NCBI GenBank assembly: GCA_965649765.1 | Contig: OZ287754.1 | Location: 62,806,001-62,870,000 of the forward strand | DNA: 64,000 bases | Source of the DNA: Bispira polyomma | Lineage: Eukaryota | Direction of reading: 5' to 3' | Shown here: piece after piece, positions 273 through 55,052 of the stretch | Layout of the letters: the number at the start of each line of letters is the position of its first letter | Numbering within the stretch: the first letter of the stretch is position 1 | Translations under genes and position numbers: made by a program | The notes under the pieces: model-generated | Seen by the model: the letters and a program-made list of their open reading frames with translations, nothing else | Told to the model about the DNA's origin: nothing | The model's database searches: none

Positions 273-349
273 CCATTGCATTTGTCATTGCATTCTATTT
301 CCATAATAATGAGTCCAATCACACTGACTGCTGTTTTGGAAGAATTCCA
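273..349 (-). pseudogene. Pseudogenised exon 1 of TNFR-like (Grindelwald/BCMA-like) paralogue
   Basis: Minus strand reads MEFFQNSSQCDWTHY then, out of frame, MEIECNDKCN-G|GTAGGT. Collinear with 19607-19472 but with a 59-nt frameshifting deletion of the CRD core; flanks ~86-1210 align patchily to ~19319-20890. Confidence 0.8.
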
Positions 350-1237
350 TCTTTTCAATCAGTTTAGGGGATCTATTTATGATATTTGTTCAGCTGTTGT
401 TGTTTTCATATTTGAAACTACATCAAGGTGTTAGCACTTTTAAGATATTTCACAGAGTTCCACTTTAAATTGCTGGTTTCTGTCATTAATTTTTATTGGT
501 TTAGACCCAGTCACATGACAATGATTACCCTCATACGATAATTTTATGGTCAGAATTGCTACCCAACAATGTAATATATCACAAGATCAGTCGAAGTTTT
601 TTTTTCTACTTATAATATATTTTTTTGCAAATATTCATGACTTAAGCAATAACAAATTAATAGTAAATCCTCAGGTAGTAGCAGTCCAAATCTTAGTTAG
701 CCAAAAAATGAATGCTAGTAACTCAATTTGTGGTTAAAAACAGTTGCCCAAACTTCACATAATGGCTGTTCAAGTCTAAAGTGTAAACCACTTGACACCA
801 GCTATCCAATCTTTTATTTATTCATATAAACCATGCTCTTTACAAAAAAAACAAAAAAACAAGTAACACATACACACAAACAAATCCCCACTTCAAATAC
901 ACCTCAATGTAAAATACTAGATCTTTACAAGTAACTTAATTTATACTTCGTACAAAACTGTTAGCTTTGAGTTATAAATACTTTAGGTTACTTAACATTT
1001 AATCACTTTTTACGCTAAAATGACTACATTTCTGATCGAATAAATGGCAATTTGGTCACAACCAACTCTTTCATAACTTTTCATGTTACACACATTATAT
1101 TTACCATTTTCTCAATCCTGAACATTGATCTGTGTCAACAAAACAGCTTTGTCATCATAAAATGCCCCATTCCTTGTGCAAACTCCCGAGGTAGTCCCAT
1201 TTTTAAAAGTTACTTAGTTCATTTCAAGTTGAACTTG

Positions 1238-4200
1238 TTTGTGCCATATGGTGGTGGAGAGCAGAGTTTAGGTTTGGCCTTTTTGTATCATACAGTGGTG
1301 GAGAGCAGAGTTTAGGTTTAGCCTTTTTGCATCATACGGTGGTGGAGAGCAGAGTTTAGGTTTAGCCTTTTTGTATCATACGGTGGTGGAGAGCAGAGTT
1401 TAGGTTTAGCCTTTTTGTATCATACGGTGGTGGAGAGCAGAGTTTAGGTTTAGCCTTTTTGTATCATACAGTGGTGGAGAGCAGAGTTTATTTTTGGCCT
1501 TTTTGTATCATACAGTGGTGGAGAGCAGAGTTTAGGTTTGGCCTTTTTGTATCATACAGTGGTGGAGAGCAGAGTTTAGGTTTAGCCTTTTTGTATCATA
1601 CGGTGGTGGAGAGCAGAGTTTAGGTTTAGCCTTTTTGTATCATACAGTGGTGGAGAGCAGAGTTTAGGTTTAGCCTTTTTGTATCATACAGTGGTGGAGA
1701 GCAGAGTTTAGGTTTAGCCTTTTTGTATCATACGGTGATGGAGAGCAGAGTTTAGGTTTGGCCTTTTTGTATCATACAGTGGTGGAGAGCAGAGTTTAGG
1801 TTTAGCCTTTTTGTATCATACGGTGGTGGAGAGCAGAGTTTAGGTTTAGCCTTTTTGTATCATACAGTGGTGGAGAGCAGAGTTTAGGTTTAGCCTTTTT
1901 GTATCATACGGTGGTGGAGAGCAGAGTTTAGGTTTAGCCTTTTTGTATCATACAGTGGTGGAGAGCAGAGTTTATTTTTGGCCTTTTTGTATCATACAGT
2001 GGTGGAGAGCAGAGTTTAGGTTTGGCCTTTTTGTATCATACAGTGGTGGAGAGCAGAGTTTAGGTTTAGCCTTTTTGTATCATACGGTGGTGGAGAGCAG
2101 AGTTTAGGTTTAGCCTTTTTGTATCATACGGTGGTGGAGAGCAGAGTTTAGGTTTAGCCTTTTTGTATCATACAGTGGTGGAGAGCAGAGTTTAGGTTTA
2201 GCCTTTTTGTATCATACGGTGATGGAGAGCAGAGTTTAGGTTTGGCCTTTTTGTATCATACAGTGGTGGAGAGCAGAGTTTAGGTTTAGCCTTTTTGTAT
2301 CATACAGTGGTGGAGAGCAGAGTTTAGGTTTAGCCTTTTTGTATCATACAGTGGTGGAGAGCAGAGTTTAGGTTTGGCCTTTTTGTATCATACGGTGGTG
2401 GAGAGCAGAGTTTAGGTTTAGCCTTTTTGTATCATACAGTGGTGGAGAGCAGAGTTTAGGTTTAGCCTTTTTGTATCATACGGTGGTGGAGAGCAGAGTT
2501 TAGGTTTAGCCTTTTTGTATCATACGGTGGTGGAGAGCAGAGTTTAGGTTTAGCCTTTTTGTATCATACAGTGGTGGAGAGCAGAGTTTATTTTTGGCCT
2601 TTTTGTATCATACAGTGGTGGAGAGCAGAGTTTAGGTTTGGCCTTTTTGTATCATACAGTGGTGGAGAGCAGAGTTTAGGTTTAGCCTTTTTGTATCATA
2701 CGGTGGTGGAGAGCAGAGTTTAGGTTTGGCCTTTTTGTATCATACGGTGGTGGAGAGCAGAGTTTAGGTTTGGCCTTTTTGTATCATACAGTGGTGGGGA
2801 GCAGAGTTTAGGTTTAGCCTTTTTGTATCATACGGTGATGGAGAGCAGAGTTTAGGTTTGGCCTTTTTGTATCATACAGTGGTGGAGAGCAGAGTTTAGG
2901 TTTGGCCTTTTTGTATCATACGGTGGTGGAGAGCAGAGTTTAGGTTTAGCCTTTTTGTATCATACAGTGGTGGAGAGCAGAGTTTAGGTTTAGCCTTTTT
3001 GTATCATACAGTGGTGGAGAGCAGAGTTTAGGTTTGGCCTTTTTGTATCATACGGTGGTGGAGAGCAGAGTTTAGGTTTAGCCTTTTTGTATCATACGGT
3101 GGTGGAGAGCAGAGTTTAGGTTTAGCCTTTTTGTATCATACGGTGGTGGAGAGCAGAGTTTAGGTTTGGCCTTTTTGTATCATACAGTGGTGGAGAGCAG
3201 AGTTTAGGTTTAGCCTTTTTGTATCATACGGTGGTGGAGAGCAGAGTTTAGGTTTGGCCTTTTTGTATCATACAGTGGTGGAGAGCAGAGTTTAGGTTTG
3301 GCCTTTTTGTATCATACGGTGGTGGAGAGCAGAGTTTAGGTTTAGCCTTTTTGTATCATACGGTGGTGGAGAGCAGAGTTTAGGTTTGGCCTTTTTGTAT
3401 CATACGGTGGTGGAGAGCAGAGTTTAGGTTTGGCCTTTTTGTATCATACAGTGGTGGAGAGCAGAGTTTAGGTTTAGCCTTTTTGTATCATACGGTGATG
3501 GAGAGCAGAGTTTAGGTTTGGCCTTTTTGTATCATACAGTGGTGGAGAGCAGAGTTTAGGTTTAACCTTTTTGTATCATACGGTGGTGGAGAGCAGAGTT
3601 TAGGTTTAGCCTTTTTGTATCATACAGTGGTGGAGAGCAGAGTTTAGGTTTAGCCTTTTTGTATCATACAGTGGTGGAGAGCAGAGTTTAGGTTTGGCCT
3701 TTTTGTATCATACGGTGGTGGAGAGCAGAGTTTAGGTTTAGCCTTTTTGTATCATACGGTGGTGGAGAGCAGAGTTTAGGTTTAGCCTTTTTGTATCATA
3801 CAGTGGTGTAGAGCAGAGTTTAGGTTTGGCCTTTTTGTATCATACAGTGGTGGAGAGCAGAGTTTAGGTTTGGCCTTTTTGTATCATACAGTGGTGGAGA
3901 GCAGAGTTTAGGTTTAGCCTTTTTGTATCATACAGTGGTGGAGAGCAGAGTTTAGGTTTAGCCTTTTTGTATCATACGGTGGTGGAGAGCAGAGTTTAGG
4001 TTTGGCCTTTTTGTATCATACGGTGGTGGAGAGCTGAGTTTAGGTTTAGCCTTTTTGTATCATACGGTGGTGGAGAGCAGAGTTTAGGTTTAGCCTTTTT
4101 GTATCATACAGTGGTGTAGAGCAGAGTTTAGGTTTGGCCTTTTTGTATCATACAGTGGTGGAGAGCAGAGTTTAGGTTTGGCCTTTTTGTATCATACGGT

Positions 4201-4338
4201 GGTGGAGAGCAGAGTTTAGGTTTAGCCTTTTTGTATCATACAGTGGTGGAGAGCAGAGTTTAGGTTTAGCCTTTTTGTATCATACAGTGGTGGAGAGCAG
4301 AGTTTAGGTTTAGCCTTTTTGTATTATACGGTGGAGGA
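1238..4338. repeat. 44-bp minisatellite, ~70 copies (RGTGGTGGAGAGCAGAGTTTAGGTTTRGCCTTTTTGTATCATAC)
   Basis: Period 44 (e.g. 1337 to 1381); near-identical units, no unique spacers. Confidence 0.98.
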
Positions 4339-9097: not shown

Positions 9098-10071
9098 TTA
9101 AAAAGAGGGGGAAATGATTGCAGCAAAAGTATCTGGGATAATAGAAGCTGCATGAGATGTTGATTCTAAATAGTCCCAAACAGCATCAGACTTCCAACAT
9201 TGATGTTTTTGGATATTTTGAAGTTTTACATTGCTGTTGAAGGCCAGAGATGCCCCTGACTTTCTAAAGCAATGAAAAGAATGACCAATGTGTGGGATTT
9301 GACTCCTTTGTAGTATCTGTTTTAATCTGAGCTGTGTATCAGTTGTGCATCTACCTCTGTTTTTTGGATTTGCCAAAAGAGGAGCCTGTTTCTCTAGAGG
9401 ATATTTGTTCAATGGTGTTTTGGCTGCCGCCACTGGACATAACCAGGGATTCTTTAAACTTCGCAGTTGTATGACATTATGTTGATTTTTTGATTGATTT
9501 GTTTTAGACCACTTTAGAATTAAGTAGATACCAGGTGGTTCAAAAATGATGTCCGATCTTGTTATATGTCTTGCGGAGTCAAATTCTGTGAGTTATGTTG
9601 GTGTCAGGTTTGATCTCCTGAGAAAACCAAAGAATGCAAATAGAAATGCTGTTCTGTAGAGTTCTGGGAAGTTTGTCAGTTGACACTGTTTTGATATTAA
9701 ATGCAGTTGATTTAAGTCGAAACACCCTTTGGTGTGGGCTTAAATGTTGATGTCAAAACCTGAGATTTCTGATATAGTGCAATTCTTGGGTCATATAATT
9801 GTGCATCCATTTTTTTGAATTTCTTTACATAGTATCGGATGGAAGCCAAATAGTTATTTATCACCCTGTATGAAAGACTTTTTTCTTGGAGAAATTCCAA
9901 AAAAAGCCAGAACTGTACAGATACTGAAGGTAGTTGTAATATCATAATATATCTGAAATGCCATGTACAGCCTTATTTGGCCGTGGTACTGTCTATTTGT
10001 CTTTGGTCTGTGACTGTCATCAAGTCTCTTGAGGGCCTTACGTACTAGGGATTGTATCCTGTCTGTCGATC
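9098..10071 (-). pseudogene. Tyrosine recombinase of YR element
   Basis: N-terminal LVRKALKRL..SHRPKT...Y, GFLRRSNL, KWSKT, LCPVAA, HCFRKSGAS, W.SDAVWDY (R..K..HxxR..W..Y pattern). Confidence 0.92.
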
Positions 10072-10092
10072 CTGAAATTAGATGTCCCTATT

Positions 10093-11704
10093 TTATATAA
10101 ACATGTCAATTGGTACATGTTCCATGTTGAAATTTTCACTTAACAATGTCTTTATTTCTGTGGCATAAGGCCCTAGTTTCTGCCATCTAGACAGTATATC
10201 AGGTATTATGTTTAATTTCCCTGGTATATGTTCAATGCTGATCCCAATATCTAGTGTTGCACATGTTAACCATAAATTCCTTAAACAGGTGCTCAAATAT
10301 GTGTCCTTACTTTTTGCTGACTGCACCAGGGCTACGACATTGTCAGATTTGATTTTTACAGTCTTATTTGTCCAGTCTTTAGTCCATAATTTGAATGTTA
10401 TTATTATACTAAGCATTTCAAAATGCACATTTGTTAGATTTTTTCTAATACAAACGAAAAGTGGAGCTGCAAATACATTTCTATTTGAAATACCACCTAT
10501 ACCTTCTAGACATGCATTCACTTGTAATAATTCTTCATATGTTTGTGTTTTATACACATAGCTACTACGTTGAATGTAAACAAGAACTGAATAAACCAGT
10601 TTAAGTCTTTGAGGAATTCTTCCGTCAATTTTATTCTTTTTAAACTTGTATGATCTCTCAGTAATTGCCACATTCTGTTCATAAAGACACTTGCTGGTTT
10701 TATGCACCTATGTATGCAGAGTAATTTTCCTAAAAGTGACTGGTATTTATTCTTTGTCACTTTTTTAAGATCACGGAAACTTAAAAATGTCTCGTATATG
10801 GTTTTTAACTTTTCTTCTTCAATATTTAACGAGCCTGCGTCAATACCAATAGTAATGGCCATACACGTGACCTTTGTATCTGGTGGTACTAGTTTCTTTT
10901 TATTTATGGGCAGACCTAAATCTTTGGGTATTTTTTGTAAAAATTCATAGGCTAAGGTAGCCTTATGTTTTGTCGATATGATTACAAAATCATCGATGTA
11001 GTTAAAGACTTTAAATCCGTTTTGTTCCATAATATACGTCACTGCATCCAAATAAAGACAGCCGTTCCATGAGTCAGACCAAACGTCCACGCAAGATCGA
11101 CGTAATGGTTTCCGTTCCATTGATACTCGAGTTAAAGACTGTCACAGGGATCAACCCTCAAATTACGGAACGCATGGGCTATGTCAACCTTTGCTAACAT
11201 TGCGTCCTCTAAAGTCTGAATATGTTGAACTATTTGATCTATTGTAGGCAGTTTAAGTTCAAACCTTATGTTGTCATAAATATTTTTATATGTTCAATCG
11301 TTCACTGAAAATCCCATCGGATATGACAAATTTAGTATTAACCGTCTTTGGTTATTGTCCTTTGGTCTTGTCAAAAAAGGAGAGCAATGGAATTCCTCAT
11401 GAATTTTTCCATTAATTGATCCTATAACTGTTCCTTGTTCTAGTTCATTATTAAAATAAATATCAATTTTTTTCTGGGTATTGTCGTGCCGAATGGTGAT
11501 TTTCAATATGTTTGTGTTCAATCTGTTCCTGTCATATAGTGGTCTTGGAAATCCAAATTCTAAATACTTTAATACTTGTTGGTCTTCATAGTCTTTTAAG
11601 TATTTTCTCCAGTTCCCTATATTGAGTCCTGATCTGATAGGTATAAGTGCTGCCTTATAGTTTTCTAGTCCAGTACTTTTTATTATGTCTGTTACCGTAA
11701 CCAA
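10093..11704 (-). pseudogene. Reverse transcriptase + RNase H of YR element
   Basis: SPFLTRPKD..RRLILNLSYP, NYIDDF, SLLGKLL, KDLNWF, NACLEGIGG, EMLSI, KSDN, HIPGKLNIIPDILSR. Confidence 0.93.
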
Positions 11705-12705
11705 TTATTTGTAGCTATCTATGTCTACTGTTTCTCTACTAGGTCCTTTAAACGAGTAGTCAATTTTGTCTAGAGGTATAAAATCATAAGTCCTCTGATC
11801 ATCTATCTGTTGACTTTTATTTGTCGTTATTTGTCTATTATCCTGTGATTCTACTTTCCATGTTTCATTTTCTATTTCTTGTAATAATGTACTAATTATT
11901 TGTGTTGTATGTTCTTGGTTGTCATGATGTATATTCTGTCTGTCTTTGTTTTCTGTATGCCTTGTCATTTCTGTTGTTATTTTGTCATTCATAATGACCT
12001 CATGTGTCTGTACAGTGTGTTGTATGTGTGCATTTTCATTTTTACTTATTTGTTCAATGTTGTGACACATATTGTCAATATAATATTCTGCTGTATGTGT
12101 TTTTGTTCTCGTGTGTACTGTTCTAGATCGGTGTTTGTTCCAATGGTTTTGTTTTGTTTTTGTCTTACTCTTGTGATTTCTTGTAAATATGTTAACACAT
12201 GTTGTTATACAAAAACAAACAGGCCAGATTTCCCTTAGGACATATGTGACTGGCTGAAATACATGCATGTCATTGATAAACAACTTTCTGTATAACCCTG
12301 TGTACTCAGGGTTATCTCTACATACTAAATGGTACATTACTACTTCACTGTTCAGTATCTTAGTAGTGCTACTATATACATCTACTAACATATTTTTAAT
12401 GTCATTATCTCTCGAGTCTTGTAACCATATCTGCTCTTTGTTCTGGTTATTATCTACACCATAAGCATTGTCCGCTATAACATGATTTACATTATTTTTA
12501 CACATATCATACCTTATCATATTGTCCTAATATATTGTTTCATTATCTCTGTTCTTCATATTATTATTACTGTTCTCTAGTTCGGGTTTAATCTTAACAC
12601 TCTGTGAATCATATCTAGTATTGTTCTGATAAAAAACATATTCACTATTTTCCGCTATTTGCTTATTTAAATCTAACTTGTTATACACTGATTCATAAAT
12701 CGGTA

Positions 12706-13973
12706 TCACTGCTGCCGTCGGTTCGTATTGCAGTCGTCTGTCCTATTGTGTTGTAGTGGTAGTTGGTCGGCCATGTAGTTTGTAACATTTGTTTTGCGGA
12801 TGAACGTTTTCCCATTTGTTAATTTTGAAACAATTGCTACAAATGTGTCTGGAAATCGTGGAGTTGTTCTCATGATCTGCTTCCTAGTTGCACTGATTCT
12901 TTTGGTAGTGTCTGCACGGGACACGTGATTTGGTTGTTGTCGATTTGTTGCTGTTCGTAGCAACTGAAGAAACAGACGTTGAAGACATTAATGCCTGGGA
13001 ATATGACAGCCTGTTCATGATCCATTTGTTTTCATCAAGCCAGATTAAGCGGCCTTCCTCGATATCGTGCATATTAGTTGCATATGCCCCTTTTGCTACC
13101 AGCCACGAAATGTTGGACGCATCTCGTAATGTGTCCCCTAACTGCCTAAGCATTGTGTTTGATATTGTCTGATTTGAAACTTCCATATTATTTTGGACTT
13201 GTCCTGCAGCAAAATGAGCCAATGTGAGGTTGTCAAAACACACACGTTTCTTGTTTACCCCGGACAGGCGTCCGTCATTCGGCCATCGGAACATGGGATC
13301 AGATGTGCATACTTTGGCTACATTAAATCGACCATATTTGCGTTTGATAGTTGACTTACCAGTCAACATGTCTCCTGTAGTCACTTCATTTTGTAGATGA
13401 GCCGACTGGCTTAGTACATTGGTGGTCAGAACTATGTTGTGTTGACTGCCGGTAAGCCCACCTGCCAGTAGCTAAAGTTGTTGTGAATACGGTAACGGTG
13501 TGTGTATGTACACTCTGAGGAATGTGTTGAAACCCTCTGTTCTGCTGCGCGTGTCCCCCTAGCTGGGTCTGAAGTGTCGACAACGGGAATTGTTGATTTC
13601 CACCCACAGCTGTCTGAACTTGTTGTGGTATAACCGGATTTGGATGGAAGCGAGAAGTTGAGTACTTCATTCTGTATTACTGATGCTTGAGAAACTACTG
13701 GCTCTTTATTTTTAGAGGCAAAACTGTCTCTAGTATTGTATTCATCATTATCTGTTGTTGTTTACACATGTCTTTATACTGAGAATCAGTCGTACTTACT
13801 GCTTGTTCTACCGACTCCTCATGTAAGGAAACATCACTCTCACTTGATCCATCTCTTTCTGTGTTGTTTTTCCATTTACACCTTTTTCCTACTGGACGCT
13901 TGTGTCTTATTACACATTTTGAGCACTCTGGTAACACTGAAGATTTTTGCTTTGATTTATCCATTATTTCCAC
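12706..13973 (-). pseudogene. gag-like ORF1 of YR element (frameshifted)
   Basis: N-terminal CSKCVIRHKRPVGKRC finger; core WPN..LSG..KKR...DNLTLAHFAAG..SW..AKGAYA..IEEG..W; C-terminal PCRHYQKNQC. Confidence 0.8.
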
Positions 13974-16900
13974 ACCACTGGGTACACAATGTTTATAATG
14001 TTGTTTTAAAACAATATACTTGTAAATAAACTAAAAACCTTTAGTAAAAACACTAAAATGCGCCGACATAAAATTTGTTTTTTCATAAAATCCAATATGG
14101 CGCTATGTATATAAATTTTTCACTTGTTGCCTTTTCAACTTTCAGGCTGAGAATGACCTTTCCTTAGTAAAGGGCAGCAAAATCTGTAATTTCTCTGGTC
14201 TCTTTTTGGACAACACAAATAAGCAAATCTACTAGCAACAAGTACAGTAAGGCTCTGTCTTTTAGTGACTGATAGGTCATGCTTATTTCATATGCAGTGA
14301 CTGTAACATTTAGACAATGAAGGTGGCAGGGGTGGAGGCTGTTACCGTCTCACCTACCCTGTCACTGTTTTCACATGTGTCACTAATTAGGGGGCAAACC
14401 TATTGTACAAAACGGGAGTTACAATCATTGCCAGAAGTGCTCCTTTCTGTAGCCAAATGCATCAAACATGCAAGAAGTTTTTCTAAACCGAAAGTTAGAG
14501 CTCCTTGGAAATAGCCACAGTAAAACTCTATTTAAGACGTGATTTAAACTGGTTCCAAACATTTATAGATCACTTTAATGGAGTTTCCTTTTTTGACTTT
14601 CGACCTCAGATTGAGCTGGATGCCTGCCTAACAAGAATGGGATCTATCCATGCCAATCAAGTATATCAAATTAAATTACCCAGTTATTGCCAAATGAAAA
14701 CATAGCATACTTGGAAATTTTAAATATTATAGTCCCCTCAAAATTACGGGCAACAGCTTAGTAGAGATAAAAAGTGCTGGTTAAATGTGATAACTAAGTG
14801 GTGGTTAGTGTTTTGCAAAGTGGGAAAACCAGGGACCCAATTCTGGCAACATATACCTGCGATAAATTAATGCTGGCCAGTCAGATTTTGTGATCCATAT
14901 CCTGGGAAAAGAACAAAATTGCAGATACGCTGTCCAGATGGACTGAAAATATAACTAAGCATGAACTTTTGTTTCAGTTAGCAGGACCAGTACAATGGTT
15001 GGCCACACATAAAAGTATGCTGAAAATATATGATAACATTTAGTTAGCCACGTATTGTGTATTTATTGCAGATGCCAATGGCTTGGACACATTGCTGACT
15101 GAGCGTGCTTTTGATAGACTGATAACTGCTTTTGCACCTTCAACTACCAAGGCTTACCAGAGAATGCATAATTTATTCTTATCATGTGGGTTACATTATG
15201 TCATGGCCTGCATCAAAGGTGATTGTGCTTCAATTATTGTCATATTTAGAGTTTCTGGTCCATAATGCTATATCTGTCTTCCAAATTGCTAACCATCTGC
15301 CAGCCATTGAGGCTCAATGCATCTTGTTCAATATCAATGTTGATGTTTTTGCTGATCCCACGATTGGTTATTATAATAGAGCTCTGCTAATTAATAGACC
15401 TTTACAAGTAAAATTGAAGTTTTAATTTGACATACCTCTTCTTAAAGATTTAGTGCAAAAATGTGACCTGACGTATATGGGCTAGGTGTTCAAGGCAGTA
15501 TATCTGACCATTTTTTTCAGCTTCCTGAGAATGTCTAGCCTGTGCCCCTTATTCAGCTAGTATTTGTTCAGCATTTAAAGCAGTTGGTCAGGGTCGATAA
15601 CATGTTTAAGCCTGGAGATAGAATAATGATGGTAAAATGGTCAAAAACGTTACAAACAAATAATGCGATTAAATCGATTACTCTACCAGCCATTCTGGGT
15701 TCTGTGCTTTGCCAAGTCAAAGCTTTTAAAAAGTATAACACCAGCTGGCAAAAATATGCTCCTTTTTCAATACGGTTGAAGATTGGATCCCTCTAACGAA
15801 CACCAGTGTCCACAAGCATCTGAAAAATGTTTTGCAAATGCTGGGCCTAACCCAATCCGGTGTGACCTTTCACGCTTTTCGTTCAGGTGCCATGTTTGCC
15901 TTCAATAATAACGTCTAACTACCGGACATACAAAGGCATGGCACTTGGATGTCGGATTGTATTTGGCGCTATAAAACCGATGGAGCTGGAGCCCAAGTAG
16001 CTGACTGCTTCAAACGGGGTTCACTAACTAGATAGTATCCAGTGTTTGGTGGGCAGACAAACCAGATTTGTCAGTCAAATAACGAACATAGTCAAATAAA
16101 ATTAAAATTTATTAGTGGAAATATACAGTAAAATAAAATGTTACTGGCTTTTGGGCATAAGGCTACCTGTAGCATTTAGTACATTAACCAATTTAGTACT
16201 TAACCTGAAACTTTTCAAAATTTGTAAATCCAATTTAATTTAGGGTAACCTTAACAAAAACTCTACTATCTTAAACTCAATATAGGGTGACCTTAAACTC
16301 AGCTAAGGTGACCTGCCCATCTTAAAACAACTGTATAATATATCAAGATAGTATTAACATAGAACTAATAGAAATTTTAATCACACTTCCTTACTAGTCT
16401 TGGTAAATTATTATATCATGACATCTGAAACCCCTCGGCTCTGGTGTACCTTACAAACTGATATTGATTTCATTCTGAAACATTAATAATTGTCACAATG
16501 TGCGCTTGTGTATTTTAATAAAGACAACTCTGGTGTTCACTGTGGAGGTAGGTGTTTTACCTGCAAGCCATTCTAGTGATATACTGAAGTAACACTAAAT
16601 AGTTCAGACTTAGTTTAACGTCACTTTCAACACTTCAGTATAATATTATAATGAGCAGTTTCTTGGTGGGGGAGAGTGGAACAGGATGGACCAATTATGT
16701 TTACACTTAAAATAACCGGCCTTCATAAAGTCTACTACCGACTTTCCCCAATGAATGCTGGGATCGAGAAAAAAGACCTAACTGATACATAGGAGGTGAA
16801 GTCACTGGACATTCTTCTACTACATTTGTCCAAATTACATTGAAACTTTCAGGTATTCTTGTGTTAGCTAAATAAAGATATTCTTAAGGTTTAATTTTTT

Positions 16901-17570
16901 CAGGATATCAATATATTTTTTGGTATTGGTTTCAGAGTAGAATTCGTGATTTTTTAAAACGGTGGGGGTTAAAACATTTTAAGGAACTCGTTCAAAGGAT
17001 CTTGTTCAAATAGAAGTTATCTTTTAGTTATATACATTTAAATTATGTAGTTTTATGTAACGAATAATTACTGGTTGCACACATTGACTGAAACATATAC
17101 CTGCTTACAGCACATTGCACAAATGGCTCCTCAATCATCATGCCTGATCATGTTAACACAAACATAGATGCATTGTGTTAACATGATTAAACATAATGAT
17201 TTTAGCTAAATCACTACACACAATTTGAATTTCAACGCTATTTGGTAAAACATAATATACATCTTAGATACACATGGACATGGTTAGAATAGACGTGTTA
17301 CAAATATATTATGCCTTACTAGTTGTAATGTTGCAAAGTTAAAATATTTTAGCATTAAAATAACATGAATTTCTGTGAATATACATAGTTGTTTTTTCTG
17401 AAATGTTATATTTTGCAATTTATTGATGATATAATATAGTGTAGAATAGATGTAAAACAGCTCGTGTACAATTAAATTATATAACCCTAACAGGTTCGTT
17501 TTTGTAATATTTTGTCTTCTTTGTTATATAATTATATTGTACCTGCCACTTGTGGAGTTTTACTACTACA

Positions 17571-17928
17571 TCAATATATGCTTTGCATGCTCTGTTGTGC
17601 ATCGGTAACTTTAACATCCATCATTTCTACAATCTCTCTTAAACTAGTCTGATCTTGATCTTCTGTATTGTTTAAGTTTGCTCTCTCTTTTTGTCTTTTC
17701 TTATTTCTCCGCCTTTTTTGTGGACCAACAGACACACAGTTACACCAATGATCAACCCCAAACCAGACAACATCAGTACAGCCACGATCAATGTCATCTG
17801 CATAACATTGGAGTTACTTGCTAACTGTTTATTTACTTGTGTCTGCATTTTACTCTCAGGTATGGAAGACATAGAGGTTGCTGAAGGCACCAACTCTCCT
17901 GTGGTTGGGAACTTCTGTTGTATATAAC
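17571..17928 (-). CDS. Exon 2 of TNFR-like receptor: stalk, TM helix, cytoplasmic tail (stop at 17672 as assembled, 17571 if one A is restored)
   Basis: Acceptor TTTGTGAG|GT continues phase 1 as GYIQQKFPTTGELVPS...; TM LIVAVLMLSGLGLIIGVTVCLLV. The GAG acceptor is a weak type. Confidence 0.68.
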
Positions 17929-19471
17929 CTCACAAATAGCATTAATCAGTCAAATTATTAATTATTTTTTTACAACCTATTGGATAGACAGCAGAGGCAT
18001 TACCAAGTACACATATAAGCAATGCTAAATACTGCATGTTTATTATAGTATTATACAATGCGGCCTGGCAATGTTACTTAGCAAAAGGTGTTGTCAATTT
18101 AGAACAAAAATAATTAAGTGGACCTATATTAAATACAAAATTGTTAGCTATTTGAAGACTAAATAATCTACTGTAACCAGAAGATTAATCGGAAATTTTA
18201 GAGACTATCAATAAAGTCGTTTTTATATTGTTATTGAAACCCTATAGCCTGTCTTTTATCTCCCTCAACGGAGGTAATAAACTGCCTTGTGTATATTAGA
18301 TCACAAAAAAAATATTTTAGAAGGTCCAGCAAAATACCCAAGGTCTATATTTTAAAACCAGCTGGCACACCTAGTTTTATTAATCGTCACATGCTTAATC
18401 ATGATGTTAATGTTTCACTTCACCAATTAATGTGCCAGCTTAAATGACTACTTTATTATACTTAGACAGTAACTTGCAATTTGGTAATTTACTAAATATT
18501 ATATTGTATGTGTTATTTATTTAATGCTACATATCTGTTAACATCGACCCTCCCTGAATTTGTTTGAACATATACTAAACTACTTATATCACCTTATGGC
18601 ATCACCTTATGGCATCTACTTTGGACTTCAACATTATTACAAACAATCAGATTTCAATGACGCACTAGATAAGCATACTTGTTTGAATGCAAAGTGGCTT
18701 CTACATCCTATTGATGACTAGAAAGTACTTAAACAGTTTACAATAATGAAAGTTGATCTTATGTGGCATTAGTTTGTTTTTTGTTGGCACAAAACAGAAA
18801 CAACAGATGTATACATTCAGTTACAAAAGACACAGACATACACAAAAATACACAATACTAAATATTACTCACATATACAACAAAACATATTTAAAAGCTG
18901 TTGTACAAAGCATATACCATTTAGACTACTACTAAGTAACACAAAGATGTGCTGTAAACTATTAAATTATTTGGCCGTAGTGTTAATAATATGCATTTTT
19001 ATCATTAAACCAGTCGCTATTTGTAGGTTGTAATGCCCAGTCAGGGTTAATAGTTTTGTATATTCATCAAGGGCTATAGGCTGATAGTCATTTTATAGCA
19101 ACTAGGCTCGTTATCTCAAAGGTTCTTGTCATAATACTTATATATCTGTCTCATTTATGTCATTTGACATGTTTACACTACAATCAATAATAAAGAATAA
19201 AATATCAAAATATTCAAAAAATAAAGGTAACATTTACTAAATTGTGATATATAAATGTGGTATTATACCAGTTTGAGTAGTGTTAGGTTATCATGAAATT
19301 GTACTCTTCACCTTACAATTCATGGTGTCACAATACACAACATTTCACAATGATCAGACTCGAGTGAACATAATACAAAATATAGCTACAATGTAAACAT
19401 ATATTACAATTCTTTCATAGTGCACACACGTAATATCCATACAAAATCCAGGAAACGAATGTTCCACCTAC

Positions 19472-19607
19472 CATTGCACTTGTCATTACACGCCATTTCC
19501 ATATCACGTGATCTATCACATAACCAGGAACACGCAAAACAGTAGCCAATGACAAGGTCACAATATTGAGTCGAATCACACTGGCTGCTATATTGGCAAA
19601 ATTCCAT
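19472..19607 (-). CDS. Exon 1 of single-CRD TNFR-like receptor (Grindelwald/BCMA/TACI-like)
   Basis: MEFCQYSSQCDSTQYCDLVIGYCFACSWLCDRSRDMEMACNDKCN, 8 Cys, phase-1 donor G|GTAGGT conserved in the paralogue. Confidence 0.8.
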
Positions 19608-19731
19608 ATTTAGGGGTTTAGGGGATCTATTGATCTTGTTACTGTTTTTACAGTTATAACAACACGAAAGTGTCAAGCAGTTTTATGACATTTCACAGAG
19701 TTCCAGTTTTATTTGCTGGTTTTTGTGATCA

Positions 19732-19762
19732 ATTTGCATTGGCTTAGACATGGTCACATGAC
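19732..19762 (-). promoter_or_regulatory. Putative proximal promoter: M-box/E-box GTCATGTGAC, CCAAT, octamer ATGCAAAT
   Basis: GTCACATGAC identical at 19753-19762 and 510-519; CCAAT in both paralogues; octamer only in this copy. Confidence 0.45.
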
Positions 19763-20286
19763 AATGATCACATCACAATAGAGTTTAACACGATGTCAGT
19801 ATAAACAGTTGTTCAACTTAAAATACTTTATCTTACATATATTTATGAAACCAAGCAATACAAAATAATTATAGTGTGTCATAGTAAATCCCCGGATAGT
19901 AGCACTTCAACTACTGCATAGTCACAAAATGGATGCCACTATATCAATGTGTGGATAAAAAAAACATTTTCAATAATCTTGAAATGATGACTGACAAACA
20001 CACATCTACCACCATAATGTGTGAATGGGTATTCTCACATTATCCTTACTTCTCCCTTCCATTTCAAGAGATTTCATATTTTGGAATGCAATATTTATTA
20101 ATACAACATTTAGTAAAAGTCACTTGTGACGACAAATGGCATGCACTATTACCACTAACAAAAATGAAATCAGTTCTTATACCATTCTAACAGATTATAT
20201 ATTAATAAAAGATCAACCATTGCATTATAGTGGTAACTAAAATAAACACTTCGACAGAAAGACTTGAAATAAAAAAACTTCCTTAT

Positions 20287-20877
20287 GGAAATTCCCTTGG
20301 TCCGAATAAAGGTTTTCATACAATAAGAGAATCTGTCTTTTTTGGGTGTCATGTGTAAGAGTTGTTCAAATGAATAAACTAATAAGTACAAAGACAAATA
20401 TAGATAAGGAAGTGTTTACAAAATAATACTGGATCTAGAGATAATATCCACCTAGCGTCTTGCAATTAATATATATTATGACAGGTATTCCCGTAGGTTC
20501 CAATGTGTATCTATTTGTTTTTTTTTCTACCATTTTAGTAAACAAAAAAAAAAAAAAATGATTTGGATTTAAAGTTAACTAAATCTAAAGTGTGAAATAA
20601 TTGATTTCTGTTAATATATTTAGCAAATAAACCATGTTCCTAGTATAAACATAAGTACACGCACGTAAAATAAATATAAAGTTAAGTATTACTTTGCAAC
20701 TAAATCAATTCATTAGTTGTAGAAAACTGTTACCTTGAATATAGGTTAGTTAATAGGCAATCAGTTCTTTATGCTAAAATGGCTTACACAATTATGGGAA
20801 TTGCCTCATTTCTAAAAAATGTACTACTGTGTACACAATTATTTCCTTAATCTTGTGCCAACGCCGGGGGAAGTCCC
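20287..20877. promoter_or_regulatory. Cluster of NF-kB-like sites upstream of TNFR-like gene
   Basis: GGAAATTCCC 20287-20296, GGGAATTGCC 20796-20805, GGGAAGTCCC 20868-20877. Confidence 0.45.
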
Positions 20878-23221
20878 ATTTTCCCTAGTCCATATTCATG
20901 ACAAGTATGTATGATATATGCTTTTTAAAAGAGTACATGACTCTTGGCACATATTTTATTTACATTCTAAACTTCCTCACATTATATTTGTGAAGGACCC
21001 GTGAATACAAACCCATAGTATGTTTAAACAAGCTCATGCCCTCAACAAATGTCTATTGGTAACTTTACTGTTGGACTTTGAAGTTATTTTTTGGCAGCTA
21101 ACTCTGGTGTAGCTTATATATGTAGATTAGGTGGAGCAGGACCTCTTCGGGGGATGGCTCTTTCAGTCCATCATAATTCTGTAATATGTTAAAACTATAG
21201 GTTATCCCAGTCCTCCAATAAACACCTATATTTATATAAAAGTACATTTTTGCTCATAAACCCGAGGCCTTTAGCCCTATTTAAAAGTATGTCTAGTTTA
21301 TTAACTAACAGCATATCATTATAGAGTTCATTGTAAATCAAGTTAAGAGATTTTGGAGTTCTGAAATCTGTCATTCAACTGTCACTGACACGTAAAAGTG
21401 ACTTGAGAAATGTATGTTTTGGCAAAATTTCTTCAAGCTATGAAACCTGCGTTTCTTGGCTATGAGGCGGCATAGTAAAATATGTTTTGGAGTCTTAAAA
21501 TCGGGTTCCCATTGATTTCTCCAATGAGGCCAGTTTAAGCAGTGAAAGGGTTAACAAGCCCTTAGGTACATAATAAATTAAGCTTTGGGGCTGATATTGG
21601 TCTATTTCACGAAAACCAAATTCATGACTTGCATATTGCACCATTCCCTACAAAAAAAAAACAAAAAAACAATCTTGATTCTGACAAACGTAGAGTTAAT
21701 TGATCTGAGATGGCCTTATGACCATTCTGTTAATTATGGTTTTAGCAAAGATAAATGCTTAGGAAAAATTACCTCCTCTTATTTTCCTCAGTTGATAGTA
21801 TTGTGAGTGTGAATGTTAGGTAAGGGGGTGCCACTTGGTACAAGTTGGACATTAACAGGGCATTCAAGCATATACAACTGGATTCACATGACTACAATCT
21901 CCTGGGTCTTGAACTTAACAGCATATATGGATAGACTTGTCAGTCTTTTGGCTACAGGAAGGGTAGTTTGCTTTTCAAAGGATCAGCGATAGTATCAGGT
22001 TTATGATGGACAAGGAAGGTCATGACATCATAAACTATATAGATGACCTGTTTGGTTTTTGAGTCTCTAGCAATACTAGTGTCGCTTTCCAGAGGTTATA
22101 CTGTTTACTGGGCACCCTTGGGTTTGATATTTGCCCAAAGTAGGCAAGCAATACCTCAACTAAAGTGAAATGCCTAGGCATTTTTATTGATAACATAAAT
22201 AACACAACATCAGTACTATCTAAACAAATGCACAAAACAAAATAATTATGCAACAACTGGGGCACATGCCTTGAAAAAAATATAAATTTAATGGGGTCAC
22301 TTTTGTGCATCAAATTCACCAGGTTTTATCTTAACCGTATTTTAGAGGCCCTCAAGGCTAACCCTGAACAAAGAAAATGTACAATGCACTCCTGAATGTT
22401 ACAAAGATATTGGATGGTTACTTTTTCAATCATAAGGAAAGATGCCTTTCTTACACAGTGGACTGACTGGAGTTAACTCTGACGTCGGCTGAGGGAACCT
22501 TAAAATGCTAAACATCTTTAAGGCAGCTTTAAATGTGTGAAGCAAAGCTTGGAAAAATACAAAAACCCTCATACATTGTGACAACCAGGCAGTTGTCAAT
22601 GTACTTTCCACGGATAAAACTAGAGACATTTAGCTAACAGCCTATGCTCGTAATATCTCCATGGAAATGGCGTTATTCAAAATAGGTGCAAAATTCATAG
22701 ATATATTGGGTAAGAACAAAAATGTTGCAGACCTGGTATCTCGTTGCAAAAAATAAACCCAGTCAACATCAACAATTGCACACACATTCAGCCAGTCATT
22801 GTTCATAATGTCATCTTAACTTAAATTCATTATATTACTAATAAAATAACTTTGGTGCCCTTAAACTGATGTTAATGTCACATCACTCTTACTTTTTAAC
22901 TTAATTAATGTCGGCCTTAAGGTCAATTAAGGCCATTAAACTTAAAATATTTTTATCAATTTATCTTAAATGTTTCACTAATCATAATGTAGTAATTTGG
23001 ATGCATACATAGTGTTAGTTTTATTATTTATCAATAAATAAAATTTCCTGACTGTGTTGTCCATTTTAGTGAACAAAAAATTGATTCAGAGTTAAAGTTA
23101 ACTAAATCTAAAGTGTGAAATAATTGATTTATGTTAGTATATTTCAAATAAACCATGTTCTTAGTATAAACATAAGTACACGTACGTAAAAAAAATATAA
23201 AGTATTAGTTTGCAACTAAAT
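20530..23221. repeat. ~170-bp direct repeat pair (20530-20705 / 23061-23221)
   Basis: CCATTTTAGT...AAAGTTAACTAAATCTAAAGTGTGAAATAATTGATTT...TTTGCAACTAAAT occurs twice. Confidence 0.85.
21640..22770 (+). mobile_element. YR retrotransposon RT/RNaseH relic
   Basis: YKLDINRAFKHI, INYIDDLFG, VKCLGI.ID, IHCDNQAVV, ILGKNKNVADLVSR with stops. Confidence 0.8.
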
Positions 23222-23595
23222 ACCGGACTTGCTGTGTTTTGCTTGGGTCATCAGGTTGTGACCTTCTCTTGACCTTGGAACTGATAAGCTCCGATAAATT
23301 CATGAATCAATATAGTACTACACTCCTCCACTCAAAAAATGTATCATCCTATTCCTGCATACGGTATAGTTCCATACGTGGAGACCTCTGAATATATCTT
23401 GCATTTTGTCAAAACTCGAAAACATTGCCTATATTTTTGATGTTTAACGAATAAATCAGCAAATGAACTTCAATAGTATTGGGATAATACTAATTAGCAT
23501 CAGTAATGTTATTAAAGTTAATTTTAAAAAAAATTGTTTAGTATCGCCAATGTAGCTAGCCAGGATGTCTGTCTTTGAGCCACAGTAGCTTCGCC

Positions 23596-24860
23596 TATGA
23601 TCATTCCACGCTTCTCAGTTGTCTTCAGACTTGGTTTGGAGTTAGGCGCTCTGTTCTTAAATGGTTCACTTCCTACTTAACTGATCGTTATCAGTCAATA
23701 AAAATTGGCTCTAATCTGTCCGATCTTTGTAAACTCTTGTTTGGTGTTCCTCAAGGTTCTGTTTTGGGCCCTCTGTTGTTCTCATTATACACTGCCCCTC
23801 TCAGATTGGTTATTGGCAAATACACAGGAATAAAGTTTCATTTTTATGCAGATGATACCCAAATTTATGTGCACCATAAAAACACATCTACTGCCTTGGA
23901 ACAGTTGAACAGGTGCCTTGACGATGTGAAAGAGTGGATGTCAGCTGGTAAACTCAAACTTAATCCCGACAAGACTGAGTTCATAATCTTTGGCTCAAAA
24001 CAACAGAGGGATAAGTTGAAAGCATTGTTTCCAGTTGACATCCTGGGTAGCCCTTTCAGTACAGCTGATTCTGTCAAGAACCTGGGTGTATGGTTTAACT
24101 CTGACTTTTTGTTTTCTAAACACATTCAGAGTGTCTGCAAAAGCTGTTTTGTGCAACTCCGTGACTTTAGACGTGTCAGACGGTTTCTCACTTATGATGC
24201 TTCTATACTTGTGGCCAATGCTTTTGTCAGTAGTAGACTGGATTACTGCAATTCACTTTTCAGTAGTCTCTCAAAGTTTAATTTACGCAAATTACAATGC
24301 ATTCAAAATAGTGCAGCTAGAATTGTGTCAAACACCAGTCGATAGTATAACTCCTGTTCTTAAGAAATTGCATTGGCTCCCTGTTGAATAGCGTTCAGTG
24401 TTTAAGACAGCTACACTTGTTTATAAGTTTCTCCACACTGGGTTTCCAAAGTATTTTGCCCCATATCTTTCCACTTACAGTAGTTCCTACAATACCAGAC
24501 GTAGTCAGAGTGGTAGTAATTTCCTTGTTGTTCCGAAGTTCCACCCATCTACTCAAAAGTCGGTTAAACAGTTTGGTCACAGCTTTGCTTTTGATGCTCC
24601 CATTGTTTGGAATGCTCTTCCTGATGTAATTCGTGCTTCCCCCTCACTAGCCTGTTTTAGAAAGAAGCTTAAAACCCACTTGTACACTAAAGCATATCCA
24701 CCTTAGTCTCAATCATCCCCCGGCGCACTCTATGTTGCTGACCCTTTTTCTGTCCCTTGATTTTGGAAATTGGATAACTGTCTTTTGTGCTGGTGCGCCT
24801 TAGAGTCCCCTTTGTTAATGGGAGATTAAGCGCAATAAAAGTCTAATTACAATTATAATT
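23596..24860 (+). mobile_element. 5'-truncated CR1/L2-group LINE (RT C-terminal half + 3' UTR)
   Basis: GVPQGSVLGPLLFSLY, HFYADDTQ, KLNPDKTE, SRLDYCNSL, FRKKLKTHLYTKAYPP; tail GCGCCTTAGAG...TAAGCGCAATAAAA. Confidence 0.95.
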
Positions 24861-27249: not shown

Positions 27250-29300
27250 CTATGTTTAAACTAGTCAGTAAAAGAGTCAGATGGGGATATTAGTTTTAAT
27301 GGATCTAAATTAATCACTAATACTTATTTACATACTAGATGGTAGGGCCACCCTAGCACCGTTAGTTTTGAAAAGTAAAGGTGACCAGAATGATTTAAAG
27401 TTAGAGTAGCCTTAGTTTCTGAAGGTTGCTACATTAGGCTAATGTTTAAGTTTGAGGTAACCTTCGATGTTGATCAGGTTAGTGTGATTTATTGAATATT
27501 TATGTATCTATTATATTTGTAATATTGTATGTAAATATAGACTATAAATATACATAAAGCCCAATTAGGTAGTAGAGTTGGAAAGGAGGGCCTTGAAAGC
27601 CAACACCACTTGTTAAGTTGATTGTGGTCTTGGACAATGTACTTCCACACACAGTCTGACGTCCGGGTGCTATGACTCTGTATGCCCTGAATGGGCATGT
27701 TACTATTGAACGCTAGAGTGATCTCTGAACACCGGAAGGAGTGGAAGGTAATATTTGAATGCCGTAACTCGAGGTGGTGCAATATCTGGGTCAAATTAGC
27801 CCGAACCCTTTTTTGATTGGAATAAGGGGGTGTCTCCAAGCCCCGGGGTGATGGCTAACGAGGCCCTAGTAACTGCCACTGGGCAGATATTGAAACCATT
27901 TAATCTTTAATACTTTAGCCACATTTTTTGATTGAAGGGTTTTAGTCCATTTAAAAATGATGTGGAGACCAGGAGGTGCGAACAAGACTTCACCTCAAGC
28001 CAGTCGAACAACGGTGAAAATTGTGTGACTGCATGAGGGACTAAATTTGATATTCTTAAAATGGAGAAAGGGCTTACTAGATAAAGTGCCTTAAATACCT
28101 AGCCCATATACATGATGTTTTACACTTGCATCATCTGAGTGAGTAAAGGCATATCAATAATGGCTTTGATACGAGCCCTGAAGGGGCCATAAAGCAGTAG
28201 GTATATGTTTATAAACCTTGAAAATCTGGCACTGTACTGCTGCAGTGTCTTTTTCGTTCTTTTTACCACGTTATTTCTACAATCCTTAGCGAGATGTGGG
28301 TAATAACGACTTTGAGTTTCCTTTAGTATCATGATCCCCTTTCTGGGGGCAAGTACCTTTCTGGTAGTATCTACAAGGGGTGACTTTTTAATGACTAGTA
28401 TGGGTGTTATTGGAAGTTTGAGTGGAATTCATTACTCTTTGGGCGTAAGCTCTTCTAGCCCTGTCTATTTTATGAAAGTCTCCTATGTGCTTTTTACTCT
28501 TCCATTTTGCATAATAAAATCGCATGACTGCTTTTAGCCGATGACCAGGAAAAGTCAGGGAAGTCCTTCATCAGATCAGATAAATACTAACATTTGGTTT
28601 GTACAGTCAGTATTACTCTCTTCTCTGATAATGCTGTTAGAACCAGCGAACCACTGGGCCATGGATAGTGAATCTTACAAAACCCTTGACTTATTATGGC
28701 CCCCTAATATGAAACTCTGAGGACACAGGACTCTTTGCTTTACCCACACAGTATCTGTGCCCCCTCTCTGGGACTTGGGCATACTCGACTCGTTGATTGC
28801 CACTAATTCTTTGAGCTGTGTATCAACTGTCGCCTGTGTGCTTGGAGATGACTATAGTGTTTGCAAGGTGAGCACTAGAAGGTTCTTCTGCTCCTGGAGC
28901 GGAGGTGTACCGTAAAGGGCTTTATGGTCGCTGTGGTTTACCTGCTGTCCAGCCTTGGTCATATGGTCACTTAGCTTTCGTAATTATGTCAATGTTTGAA
29001 CATTAATGTCAGCAGGACTTTGACTTCCACTAGCCTGAGCAGAGTTCAGCACCTCAATCTTCGCAGCATTAAACTAGACTGCCACAATTATCATTGATTG
29101 GTTTTTAATGCTTATTTCCACAATTATCGCAGTCATAAGTTTTACGTGGAGCCATATCCGAATTATATAATCAGAACTCTGTGCTTTGGTACTTGCGAAT
29201 ATATGATAATGAAACAGATTTATGTATTTGAATAGTACAGTAGTTTATTGTAAAATTGTTTAAATATAAATACAAAATGACATTCCTTTACCAAAGCTAA
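27250..29300 (-). mobile_element. Internally deleted YR retrotransposon (gag + YR C-terminal part, RT/RH missing)
   Basis: gag KSQRG, PQSFILGG.NKSRV, AQWFAG, FSWSSAKSSHAILLCKMEE (28500-28900); YR LRISNLVPH, KWTKT, FHSFR.S..TLAF, SDCVWKY (27600-28200). Ends approximate. Confidence 0.8.
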
Positions 29301-37100: not shown

Positions 37101-37400
37101 AGCATTTAGGGCCAGGATTTACCTGGATGTCACCAGAATATAAAAACATGTGGAGCTTTGTTTGAGAAAAATGAGTTTTTACTCTGGCAGAGAATGGCCA
37201 CATGCACTTTGGCAAGAGAAAAAATTAAAGAGGGTTGTATCCAGGGTTTATATAGTGACGGCGATTCATCTTCGGCTGTGACAGATCTGATCCAGATAAG
37301 GACCATCACACAAAAAACATGTAGTAGGTGCATAGCTTGAACATATACAAAAGAAGTGATACAGCCTAAAAGATAGAAAAACCAGATTCAAGAAACAGCT
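34140..37400 (-). mobile_element. Near-complete CR1/L2-group LINE ORF2 (2A-like peptide, APE endonuclease, RT), few lesions
   Basis: GDIQVNPGP, FNIRSIRNK, ITETW, RGGGVG, VYRPP, GDFNI, ILDLVIT, NNRPVSNL, HSTETAL, VPQGSVLGP, YADDTQ, FRKRLKTHLY. Confidence 0.96.
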
Positions 37401-42695: not shown

Positions 42696-43449
42696 GTAGG
42701 AAATCAATTTGAGTATTTGTTGCGTTAGTTAATACATCAAATCAAATCAATGTATCAGTTAATGTATCAAATGTTTTACTATTGAGGTGTTTATTCTTTG
42801 TGACTATAATTCGATTTTGAATGCAGACCATGACCAACAAATAACCAACAAAATATGTTTAACCTTTCTGTATGAATGTTTATATTCTGGGACATATTGT
42901 ATGGTTTCCTTAAAAGTAGTATTGAATGGCGATAACTTTGACAAAGAAGCAACATCAAATTAAGTGACTGTTGAAATATTTGAGTCTTTATAGCACCATA
43001 ACAGTCGATAAAAGGCATGTCCTTGGCTTAATATTCTGTTATAATATTTCTAAAGTTCACTTTGTTTTTTGGGTATAGCATTTTTCCAGAAATATCAATG
43101 CATAAATAACTTTAATGGTGAAATTACAAATAGTGTTTTTAAAATGTATTTATATATACAAATACCTACAGAAACTTTGGAAATGGTATTTCAAGAATGA
43201 AGAGATAATGGTAAACGTTAAAATTTGTTGAATGTAATTTCTTAAATTTGCTGCATTATAGGTTTTGTTCAATATTATCAAATATTTCACTGCATTGATA
43301 AAAAAAAAATTAATAATTTGTGATATACCCTTAACTGAGATGTACTGCTGTTACTGAATATGCTGTATGTTTATCGCATACACTGTTTGAATGAATTTAG
43401 TATGATACAGTCCTTAACATAAATACCCCAAAGCCAACAGCATCCAGTG

Positions 43450-44250
43450 TTTCCACAAAATTCAGTTTATATACACCACTCTCCTTAGTAAAATAATATC
43501 TAATTTTAACGTAACTCATCACCTGTATGCTGATGATAAACAAATATACTTGGCACTAGATGCAAGAAACTTTGACTCCAGCATATCAAAGTTGGCAAAA
43601 TGCCTTGAGGCTGTACAAATATGGATAAAAAGTGAGGAGCTTAAACTCAACGCAGACAAAAGTGTATTTATTACTGACAATGCTACTCGTGAAAGTTTCA
43701 AACCATTCTTTCTGATCAGTCTCATTCACAACAATATGTTACCATCGAGTAAACTAAAGAACCTTGGTGTTATCTTCAACCAAGAATACTCCTGCAGTAG
43801 TCATGTAGCCAGTGTCTGCCGGGCGTGCTACTACCATTTACGCGATCTGTACAGAATATGCAGGAATGTCATTCTTGAAACTGTAGTCTAGGTGGCAAAC
43901 GCAAGACTATTACAATTCCTTGCAGTACAGTATTAATAAGGTTCCAAAGAGTCCAAAATGCCCTCTTACATATTGTGTACGTATCTGAGGCACTGCTTTG
44001 CCGTTACAGCTCATGTTGAATGGAAACAACTCCTACACACTGTCAGATCACATAATGAAATCACAGGTTTCAGAAGCCATCTGAACACCTATGACAGGCC
44101 TAACCCATCATTAGTCACCTTTTCCTTGATAGGTGCTTTTGTGTTTTGTGCTTTGGTTACCCCTGGACTTTCCGATTTTTGATATCAGTGCCTTAGAGCA
44201 TACGATCATCAATTTGGAGCTTTATAAATGTTTCAATTACATTAATTATT
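43450..44250 (+). mobile_element. Degenerate 3' fragment of CR1/L2 LINE
   Basis: HHLYADDKQIY, LKLNADK, KNLGVIF, CRACYYHLRDL; tail GTGCCTTAGAGCA...TTTATAAAT. Confidence 0.85.
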
Positions 44251-54280: not shown

Positions 54281-54403
54281 CCGGAGGAGTTATTTAAGAC
54301 AAGAAAGAGAGTCATAGTGATTACAAGTGACCTTGTTAAGAATGTTTTAAGTCAAAGCTTTAATTTCCAAATAAAAATCATGGTCATCGACCGGGATGTT
54401 CCT

Positions 54404-54812: not shown

Positions 54813-55052
54813 TGTCAATTACAATTGTCTTACATCATTTGACATGAAGAACCTCAGTTAAGATCCACCTTGGATTGACTAAAAAAGCTTCAAACATCAG
54901 TATCTGGTGGCACACTTCAGTTTTATTGGTGTAAAAGCTAACAGACAATGAATAAGACCAATTATTGTGTCGGAATTGATGATATTTAAGATTCAATTTG
55001 CTTTTCTTGATACCGTTTCACAGTATTGGCTAGTAGCCCAATAAAATAACAC

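Follow-up and report, generated by a model that had tools for sequence, protein, structure and literature searches.

A candidate leaderless, single-domain TNF receptor gene with Grindelwald- and BCMA-like features in Bispira polyomma

On the reverse strand of the analyzed stretch of Bispira polyomma DNA (64,000 nucleotides, here called the window) two short segments are found, a real coding exon and a predicted second exon, which very probably form a genuine gene for a small receptor of the single-CRD (cysteine-rich domain) Grindelwald/BCMA type (Table 1). When exon 1 is joined by script to position 17928, the predicted spliced frame encodes 130 amino acids and ends with the TAA at 17674–17672. 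A sequence-only reading of the same DNA had placed the left end of the gene at 17571, but this is the stop of a different (-1) frame. The same reading had noted an in-frame stop shortly upstream of the ATG at 19607 and no hydrophobic leader after it, and both observations are confirmed: the stop lies at 19685–19683, 25 codons before the ATG, and no leader follows. The ATG stands in a strong context (A in position -3, G in position +4).

Table 1. Features of the candidate receptor locus and of its paralog, with positions in the window
Feature	Position	Strand	Remarks
Exon 1: ATG and entire eight-cysteine domain	19472..19607	-	45 codons + 1 nt (136 nt), phase 1
Predicted intron, 1543 nt	17929..19471	-	GT donor at 19471, non-consensus GAG acceptor; sequence only
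Coding part of exon 2 (stalk, TM helix, tail of 16 residues, stop codon TAA)	17672..17928	-	Splice predicted
Predicted TM helix, about residues 90–114	17723..17797	-	Hydropathy, charge; basic stretch of net +4 after it
Open -1 frame, 49 codons	17571..17720	-	After six-A run, basic cluster at start; outside the spliced frame
Candidate poly(A) signal, first AATAAA past the stop	17419..17424	-	Sequence only
Upstream region common to main copy and paralog	19608..20790	-	Blocks 68–78% identical
Paralogous exon 1	274..350	-	59-nt internal deletion giving frameshift and stop after 21 codons; first Cys lost

Splicing from 19472 to 17928 is inferred. The GT donor of exon 1 is conserved in the main copy and in the paralog, and the GC content steps from 15–23% to 40–53% at the predicted exon 2 boundary. 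The acceptor at 17928 is a GAG, which is a rare type, and it ranks 22nd among 89 AGs by pyrimidine content. Branch-like YTRAY motifs are present at 17961–17945, 15–32 nt upstream of it, and no other AG occurs between 17977 and 17930. The in-frame CAGs at 17898 and 17880 are alternatives that would shorten the stalk and leave the architecture otherwise unchanged. Use of the TAG at 17976, which is richer in pyrimidines than the predicted acceptor, would bring the frame to a stop after a further 11 codons; this TAG and the CAG at 17914 would both lead to CRD-only products. The predicted intron holds no internal micro-exons at the thresholds applied, and a search for the donor of a third exon gave nothing convincing (best GT score -0.9). 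The contigs of runs X1–X3 leave exon 1 and the intron ends uncovered.

Exon 1 has cysteines at residues 4, 10, 16, 23, 26, 30, 40, and 44, i.e., a spacing of 5, 5, 6, 2, 3, 9, and 3 residues, which matches exactly the eight-cysteine pattern claimed beforehand. A strict and a core version of this pattern are each found a single time in the window, and 100 order-3 Markov simulations of the window contain neither, a result whose significance is overstated as the patterns were composed after the exon had been seen. With the looser rule of eight cysteines within 41 residues there are four occurrences in the window against 0.22 expected. As also described in the sequence-only reading, the predicted spliced protein continues with a stalk (45 residues, of which 11 are Ser or Thr) and a single hydrophobic helix (maximal KD19 value 2.65), with a charge of +1 before the helix and +4 after it. 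Receptors have been called grnd-like when a single CRD with the signature CxxCxxxC is followed by a TM helix within about 80–120 residues (10.1101/2024.07.27.603686). Here the single CRD carries the signature as C23-x2-C26-x3-C30 and, given the predicted splice, the helix, at about residues 90–114, agrees with this range.

The strongest evidence of the analysis comes from comparing exon 1 with its paralog, which tblastn located at a distance of about 19 kb. The paralogous copy spans 274–1030, its exon 2 would fall off the window, and its upstream homology with the main copy extends over about 0.7–1.2 kb. Both copies retain the ATG, its context and the donor, and in each an in-frame stop precedes the ATG. 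Among the 25 codons common to the two there are six synonymous differences in 10.4 sites and six non-synonymous differences in 64.6 sites, and the resulting pN/pS of 0.16 (Fisher p=0.0007) is a sign of purifying selection. The exon is identical at 65 of 77 positions and the flanks at 388 of 541 (p=0.019). Because purifying selection is seen against a frameshifted paralog, exon 1 is, or recently was, coding; its frame was maintained as protein, present-day activity being a separate matter. That two unrelated frames were joined by chance is scarcely credible in the light of this codon-level selection, the donor conserved in both copies, the GC step at exon 2 and the absence of the cysteine pattern from the simulations, even if a weak acceptor and the failure to find a homolog would suit such a coincidence. 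Two further observations concern copies of the region. A 5861-nt contig from runs X1–X3 matches 19729–19762 with 3 differences in 34 nt, where the paralog in the window differs at 7, and faintly suggests that the genome has a third copy elsewhere. Part of the common upstream region is also locally duplicated (20530–20705 and 23061–23221, 85% identical).

The relation to known receptors was addressed by remote searches and folding for which the exon pieces served as queries. In a sequence search of the PDB (phmmer) with exon 1, six of the seven matches were BCMA, with a sub-significant best E-value of 0.06. Two chance cysteine-rich frames from the window, used as controls, gave a best E-value of 0.16 and no match, respectively. 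As a chance frame can come this close, the BCMA E-value proves nothing by itself, and what counts is the register over the full length of the domain. The alignment covers residues 4–45 with all six BCMA cysteines in register and one gap of a single residue; Y15 and D17 are identical, and V19 and I20 stand opposite two leucines. It had been proposed that the segment QYCDLVIGYC mirrors the DxL ligand-binding hairpin as DxV, and the alignment fits this: D17 falls on the Asp of BCMA and V19 replaces the Leu of DxL, a conservative variant inside the predicted hairpin. In the Atlas, which uses ESM features, the top two clusters were TACI-CRD2 (0.80) and BCMA (0.76), matches that count as leads only by the Atlas's own rule. 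Pfam recognized none of its families in exon 1, including PF09257, PF09305, and PF09256 at the curated cut-off; another profile, PF00020, reportedly fails to detect even Grnd (10.1101/2024.07.27.603686).

Of the five AlphaFold2 single-sequence models of exon 1, one reached a pLDDT of 70 or more (77; the others 47–62), and it consists of a hairpin (strands at residues 14–17 and 22–25) and two helices (26–32 and 37–45), an arrangement that fits the X2 and C2 modules described for Grnd (PMC8024323). Foldseek, one of the checks suggested with the original claim, placed BCMA chains at ranks 1–8 of 36 for this model and also listed Grnd, TACI, Fn14 (rank 22), and BAFF-R; the E-values of the BCMA chains were 0.85–1.3, none of the matches did better than 0.85, and the ranking is uncalibrated against chance cysteine-rich frames. 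Thus phmmer, ESM features, and Foldseek agree in putting BCMA or TACI first, but all three rest on one stretch of 46 residues, so that they do not count as independent, and none is significant. With VIA-align, seven of 48,161 chains had Z of at least 2 (2.2–3.0), and the Ascaris carboxypeptidase inhibitor (3.0), Grnd (2.9), Draxin (2.8), and BCMA (2.7) were tied; the match to Grnd (6ZSY) has an rmsd of 3.7 over 42 residues. In a second look with VIA-align Grnd came first and BCMA filled 8 of 12 rows. Whether an unrelated cysteine-rich fold is the best structural match, one of the outcomes named beforehand as refuting the proposal, is answered differently by the two methods: BCMA leads in Foldseek, and VIA-align ties Grnd and BCMA with unrelated folds. 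It is conceivable from the latter that the protein is a membrane-anchored cysteine-rich domain of knottin, Draxin or protease-inhibitor type whose likeness to BCMA arose by convergence. EETI-II too is tied with Grnd and BCMA in VIA-align, among the Foldseek matches the highest probability is that of Draxin (0.66, for 25 columns), and no sequence match is significant. Convergence is nevertheless quite improbable, as Draxin (25 columns) and EETI-II (residues 1–27) match best over the N-terminal half, while BCMA matches residues 4–45 with all six cysteines and the helical C-x3-C...C-x3-C module, and as the order CRD, stalk, TM helix fits a receptor. A single-CRD TNFRSF-like receptor, as originally proposed, is still the best reading on account of the cysteine register, the DxV hairpin, and the predicted fold, with every score below significance.

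The description as resembling both Grindelwald and BCMA/TACI is fair in view of the C2 loop of nine residues, the extra cysteines 4 and 16 and the D-x-V tip; it describes cysteine register and hairpin, the similarity scores all being sub-significant. The CRD of Grindelwald is built from an X2 hairpin containing two intercalated disulfides and a C2 module, Cys-x3-Cys-x11-Cys-x3-Cys (Palmerini et al., PMC8024323), and the same paper likens it to BCMA, Fn14, and TACI but without their Asp-x-Leu motif. Like Grnd (6ZSY, 6ZT0), the present protein has one eight-cysteine CRD with a predicted hairpin followed by helix-loop-helix, the CxxCxxxC core, a second module of the form C-x3-C...C-x3-C, and a single predicted TM helix, and an aromatic residue precedes the third cysteine in both (Y15 here, probably corresponding to F46 in Grnd). 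It differs in sequence (17–20% identity), in the second-module loop (x9 here, x11 in Grnd), in its D-x-V tip where Grnd has no Asp-x-Leu motif (PMC8024323), in having no detectable signal peptide where the mosquito Grnd has a predicted one (PMC9646898), and in a 16-residue tail where Grnd has Veli- and Traf2-binding regions (PMC8024323). Like BCMA (TNFRSF17) it would have a CRD that starts right after the Met without a leader, as in type III receptors, and it shares the six-cysteine register and the Tyr and Asp of the hairpin. In contrast to BCMA it has two additional cysteines (residues 4 and 16, with a Phe of BCMA opposite the second), Val for Leu in DxL, a C2 loop of x9 instead of x8, and no TRAF motif; the likeness is a resemblance and does not imply orthology. 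Fn14 (TNFRSF12A) is likewise a small single-CRD receptor with a C2 module (PMC8024323) but is only 16% identical. Wengen is an invertebrate TNF receptor whose mosquito homolog has no predicted signal peptide; the CRD of Wengen is of the canonical TNFR type and is recognized by PF00020 (PMC9646898), whereas exon 1 has no Pfam match.

The absence of a leader bears on topology. BCMA, TACI, BAFF-R, and XEDAR are type III receptors (PMC6001812), and a leaderless invertebrate TNFR would not be unprecedented, given the mosquito Wengen without a predicted signal peptide (PMC9646898). The alternative is a type I, Grindelwald-like receptor in which an upstream signal-peptide exon is spliced to an AG at 19626, 19634, or 19641 (all in frame, at 19, 27, and 34 nt upstream of the ATG), which would make the ATG internal. 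The mosquito Grnd homolog with its predicted signal peptide (PMC9646898) gives this alternative some appeal, as does the conservation around the first of these AGs: the two copies agree in all of the 16 nt around 19626, and the indel that follows is 3 nt long and keeps the frame. On the other hand the upstream AGs are poor in pyrimidines (27–45%) and lack any run of four T, both copies conserve the Met with its context, and the frame of the paralog is closed by a stop upstream of the nearest AG. A scan of the 44.3 kb upstream for exons with an ATG, a hydrophobic stretch and a donor gave 0, 1, and 3 candidates at three thresholds (21852, 24995, 40435, and 44679, all weak), and the plus strand, scanned as a control over about 64 kb, gave 1, 3, and 1, i.e., the candidates occur at control frequency with no upstream excess. 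An upstream signal-peptide exon is unlikely, and a leaderless type III topology with the N-terminus outside is the favored, though unproven, reading over type I.

The cytoplasmic tail of 16 residues contains none of six motif patterns (three TRAF, PDZ class I, and two sorting patterns). The BCMA tail is far longer, and Fn14 is a type I receptor with a TRAF-binding tail. Neither the Traf2- and Veli-binding regions of Grindelwald sensu stricto nor the TRAF-binding cytoplasmic motif that goes with BCMA, TACI, and BAFF-R is present in the predicted tail. After a run of six A the -1 frame is open for 49 codons; open windows of this length make up 178 of 6302 (2.8%) in the flanks, or about 6% for two frames, and this tail also lacks all six signaling motifs tested. 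An assembly error in the run of six A as the cause of the short tail is not supported: a contig from run X3, which may be the source sample, matches 17000–17814 with 0 differences, the six-A run included. Since this contig agrees, the run is not an obvious assembly error, and a one-base loss in the lineage is possible, by which an ancestral longer tail, the -1 frame, may have been cut. Taken further, the locus could be a decaying copy in a birth-and-death family that once signaled with the -1-frame tail and now, with a weak acceptor and the one-base loss, yields little or no protein. The GAG acceptor, the rarity of such open windows, the neighboring copy that is already broken, and a region rich in mobile-element remnants are all consistent with decay. 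Yet all eight cysteines, the ATG, the donor, and the TM helix are intact, pN/pS is 0.16 (although this value also covers any period before decay set in), the -1 tail is itself devoid of the tested motifs, and the in-frame tail is basic as well. Decay to this extent is considered unlikely.

Taken together, the locus is best read as a type III single-CRD TNF receptor, probably a decoy or a truncated allele. The fuller account, in which the two segments encode a 130-residue leaderless single-pass protein with a Grnd/BCMA-like CRD that binds a TNF trimer and whose tail probably does not signal alone, has a moderate likelihood. The exon 1 frame with its cysteines, the selection on exon 1, the hydrophobic helix and the short tail are present at the locus; the β-hairpin (residues 14–25) and the helices at 26–32 and 37–45 are predicted. 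By analogy with Grnd and BCMA, disulfides would join cysteines 4 and 16, 10 and 23, 26 and 44, and 30 and 40, with Cys4 and Cys16 supplying the second bond of the X2 module; the helix would act as a reverse signal anchor oriented by the basic residues behind it; and a TNF trimer would be bound 3:3 through Y15, D17, V19, and I20, the DxL site being the ligand site of BCMA (PMC9428257). It is more speculative that the protein tunes TNF/Eiger signaling as a membrane decoy or co-receptor, a role suggested by the lack of a TRAF motif or death domain. That it works like a single-CRD receptor is well supported; strict membership of the Grnd or BCMA family fails on the tail and on profile scores.

Single-CRD receptors of this kind have been described before. 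Grnd was called arthropod-specific from BLAST searches (10.1101/2021.12.26.474206), and a survey of 148 proteomes later listed 115 grnd homologs, which include as many as 12 paralogs in an annelid, members in molluscs, and a single one in a coral, the single-CRD CxxCxxxC type being called the predominant invertebrate mode (10.1101/2024.07.27.603686). The novelty of the present gene is lower for this reason, as Grnd-like receptors are already known outside arthropods. What may be new is the combination of a Grindelwald-type eight-cysteine domain with a BCMA-type hairpin and no leader, the receptor type itself being known. The main text of the survey makes no mention of signal peptides, type III receptors, BCMA, TACI, or DxL, and its supplements may hold leaderless members. 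In the open-licence literature no report was found of a BCMA-like, leaderless or type III invertebrate TNFR, nor of the exon structure of BCMA; PMC7674686, PMC9295861, and 10.64898/2026.08.14.743262 have little further bearing. It is tempting to speculate that a functional invertebrate type III receptor joins the eight-cysteine X2 and C2 modules of Grnd with the Dx(L/V) hairpin of BCMA, so that the leaderless design and the hairpin binding mode would be older than vertebrates and share one ancestor with Grnd, a proposal that is possible but doubtful. If it were true, loss of one disulfide would yield the BCMA domain. A receptor with both sets of features would help to link the B-cell survival receptors of vertebrates to the single-CRD receptors of invertebrates, and the domain of exon 1 can serve as a seed for profile searches; the gain is modest as yet, with a single locus and sub-significant similarity.

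Searches for homologs gave no candidate for exon 1 among longer proteins and none for exon 2 among 73 candidates examined, and no unnamed Atlas cluster matched. Two matches were rejected, i.e., a prokaryote-like repeat protein aligned to residues 10–36 (phmmer E 1.6e-4, the only match in 1.84 billion representatives) and one of 131 stretches in a metagenome scan that had a 10-residue seed match. As the collections appear thin in animal proteins, these blank searches do not show novelty. No TNF domain or ligand was found among the 115 frames of at least 75 residues in the window.

The window has the character of animal DNA: besides remnants of LINE reverse transcriptases it contains satellites, tRNA genes in an array, and an ankyrin-repeat gene that is broken. 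The repeat types make an invertebrate source plausible; in a vertebrate the receptor candidate would be read more simply as a divergent gene of the BCMA group. The LINE endonuclease and reverse transcriptase remnants (Pfam Exo_endo_phos and RVT_1) lie at 34294–37224 on the minus strand and at 23560–24700 and 43418–43888 on the plus strand. Fragments at 9100–13800 (minus strand), 14100–16000, and 27492–27854 resemble what we take to be tyrosine-recombinase (DIRS-type) retrotransposons, and have no Pfam match at E 0.001. The ankyrin-repeat gene (40540–42700, plus strand) is split over several frames, and its first piece is 45% identical to two proteins of about 800 residues. A 44-nt satellite with 70 copies and 96% matches occupies 1251–4338, just upstream of the broken paralog, and 54400–64000 is a tandem array of units of about 1075 nt with tRNA genes, in which 16 Rfam tRNA matches were found and ARAGORN identified tRNA-Ser(AGA) of 94–96 nt and tRNA-Phe(GAA). 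No CA microsatellites were found in the window. Its GC content is 36%, and the strong depletion of CpG (observed/expected 0.39) together with an excess of TpG/CpA suggests widespread DNA methylation.
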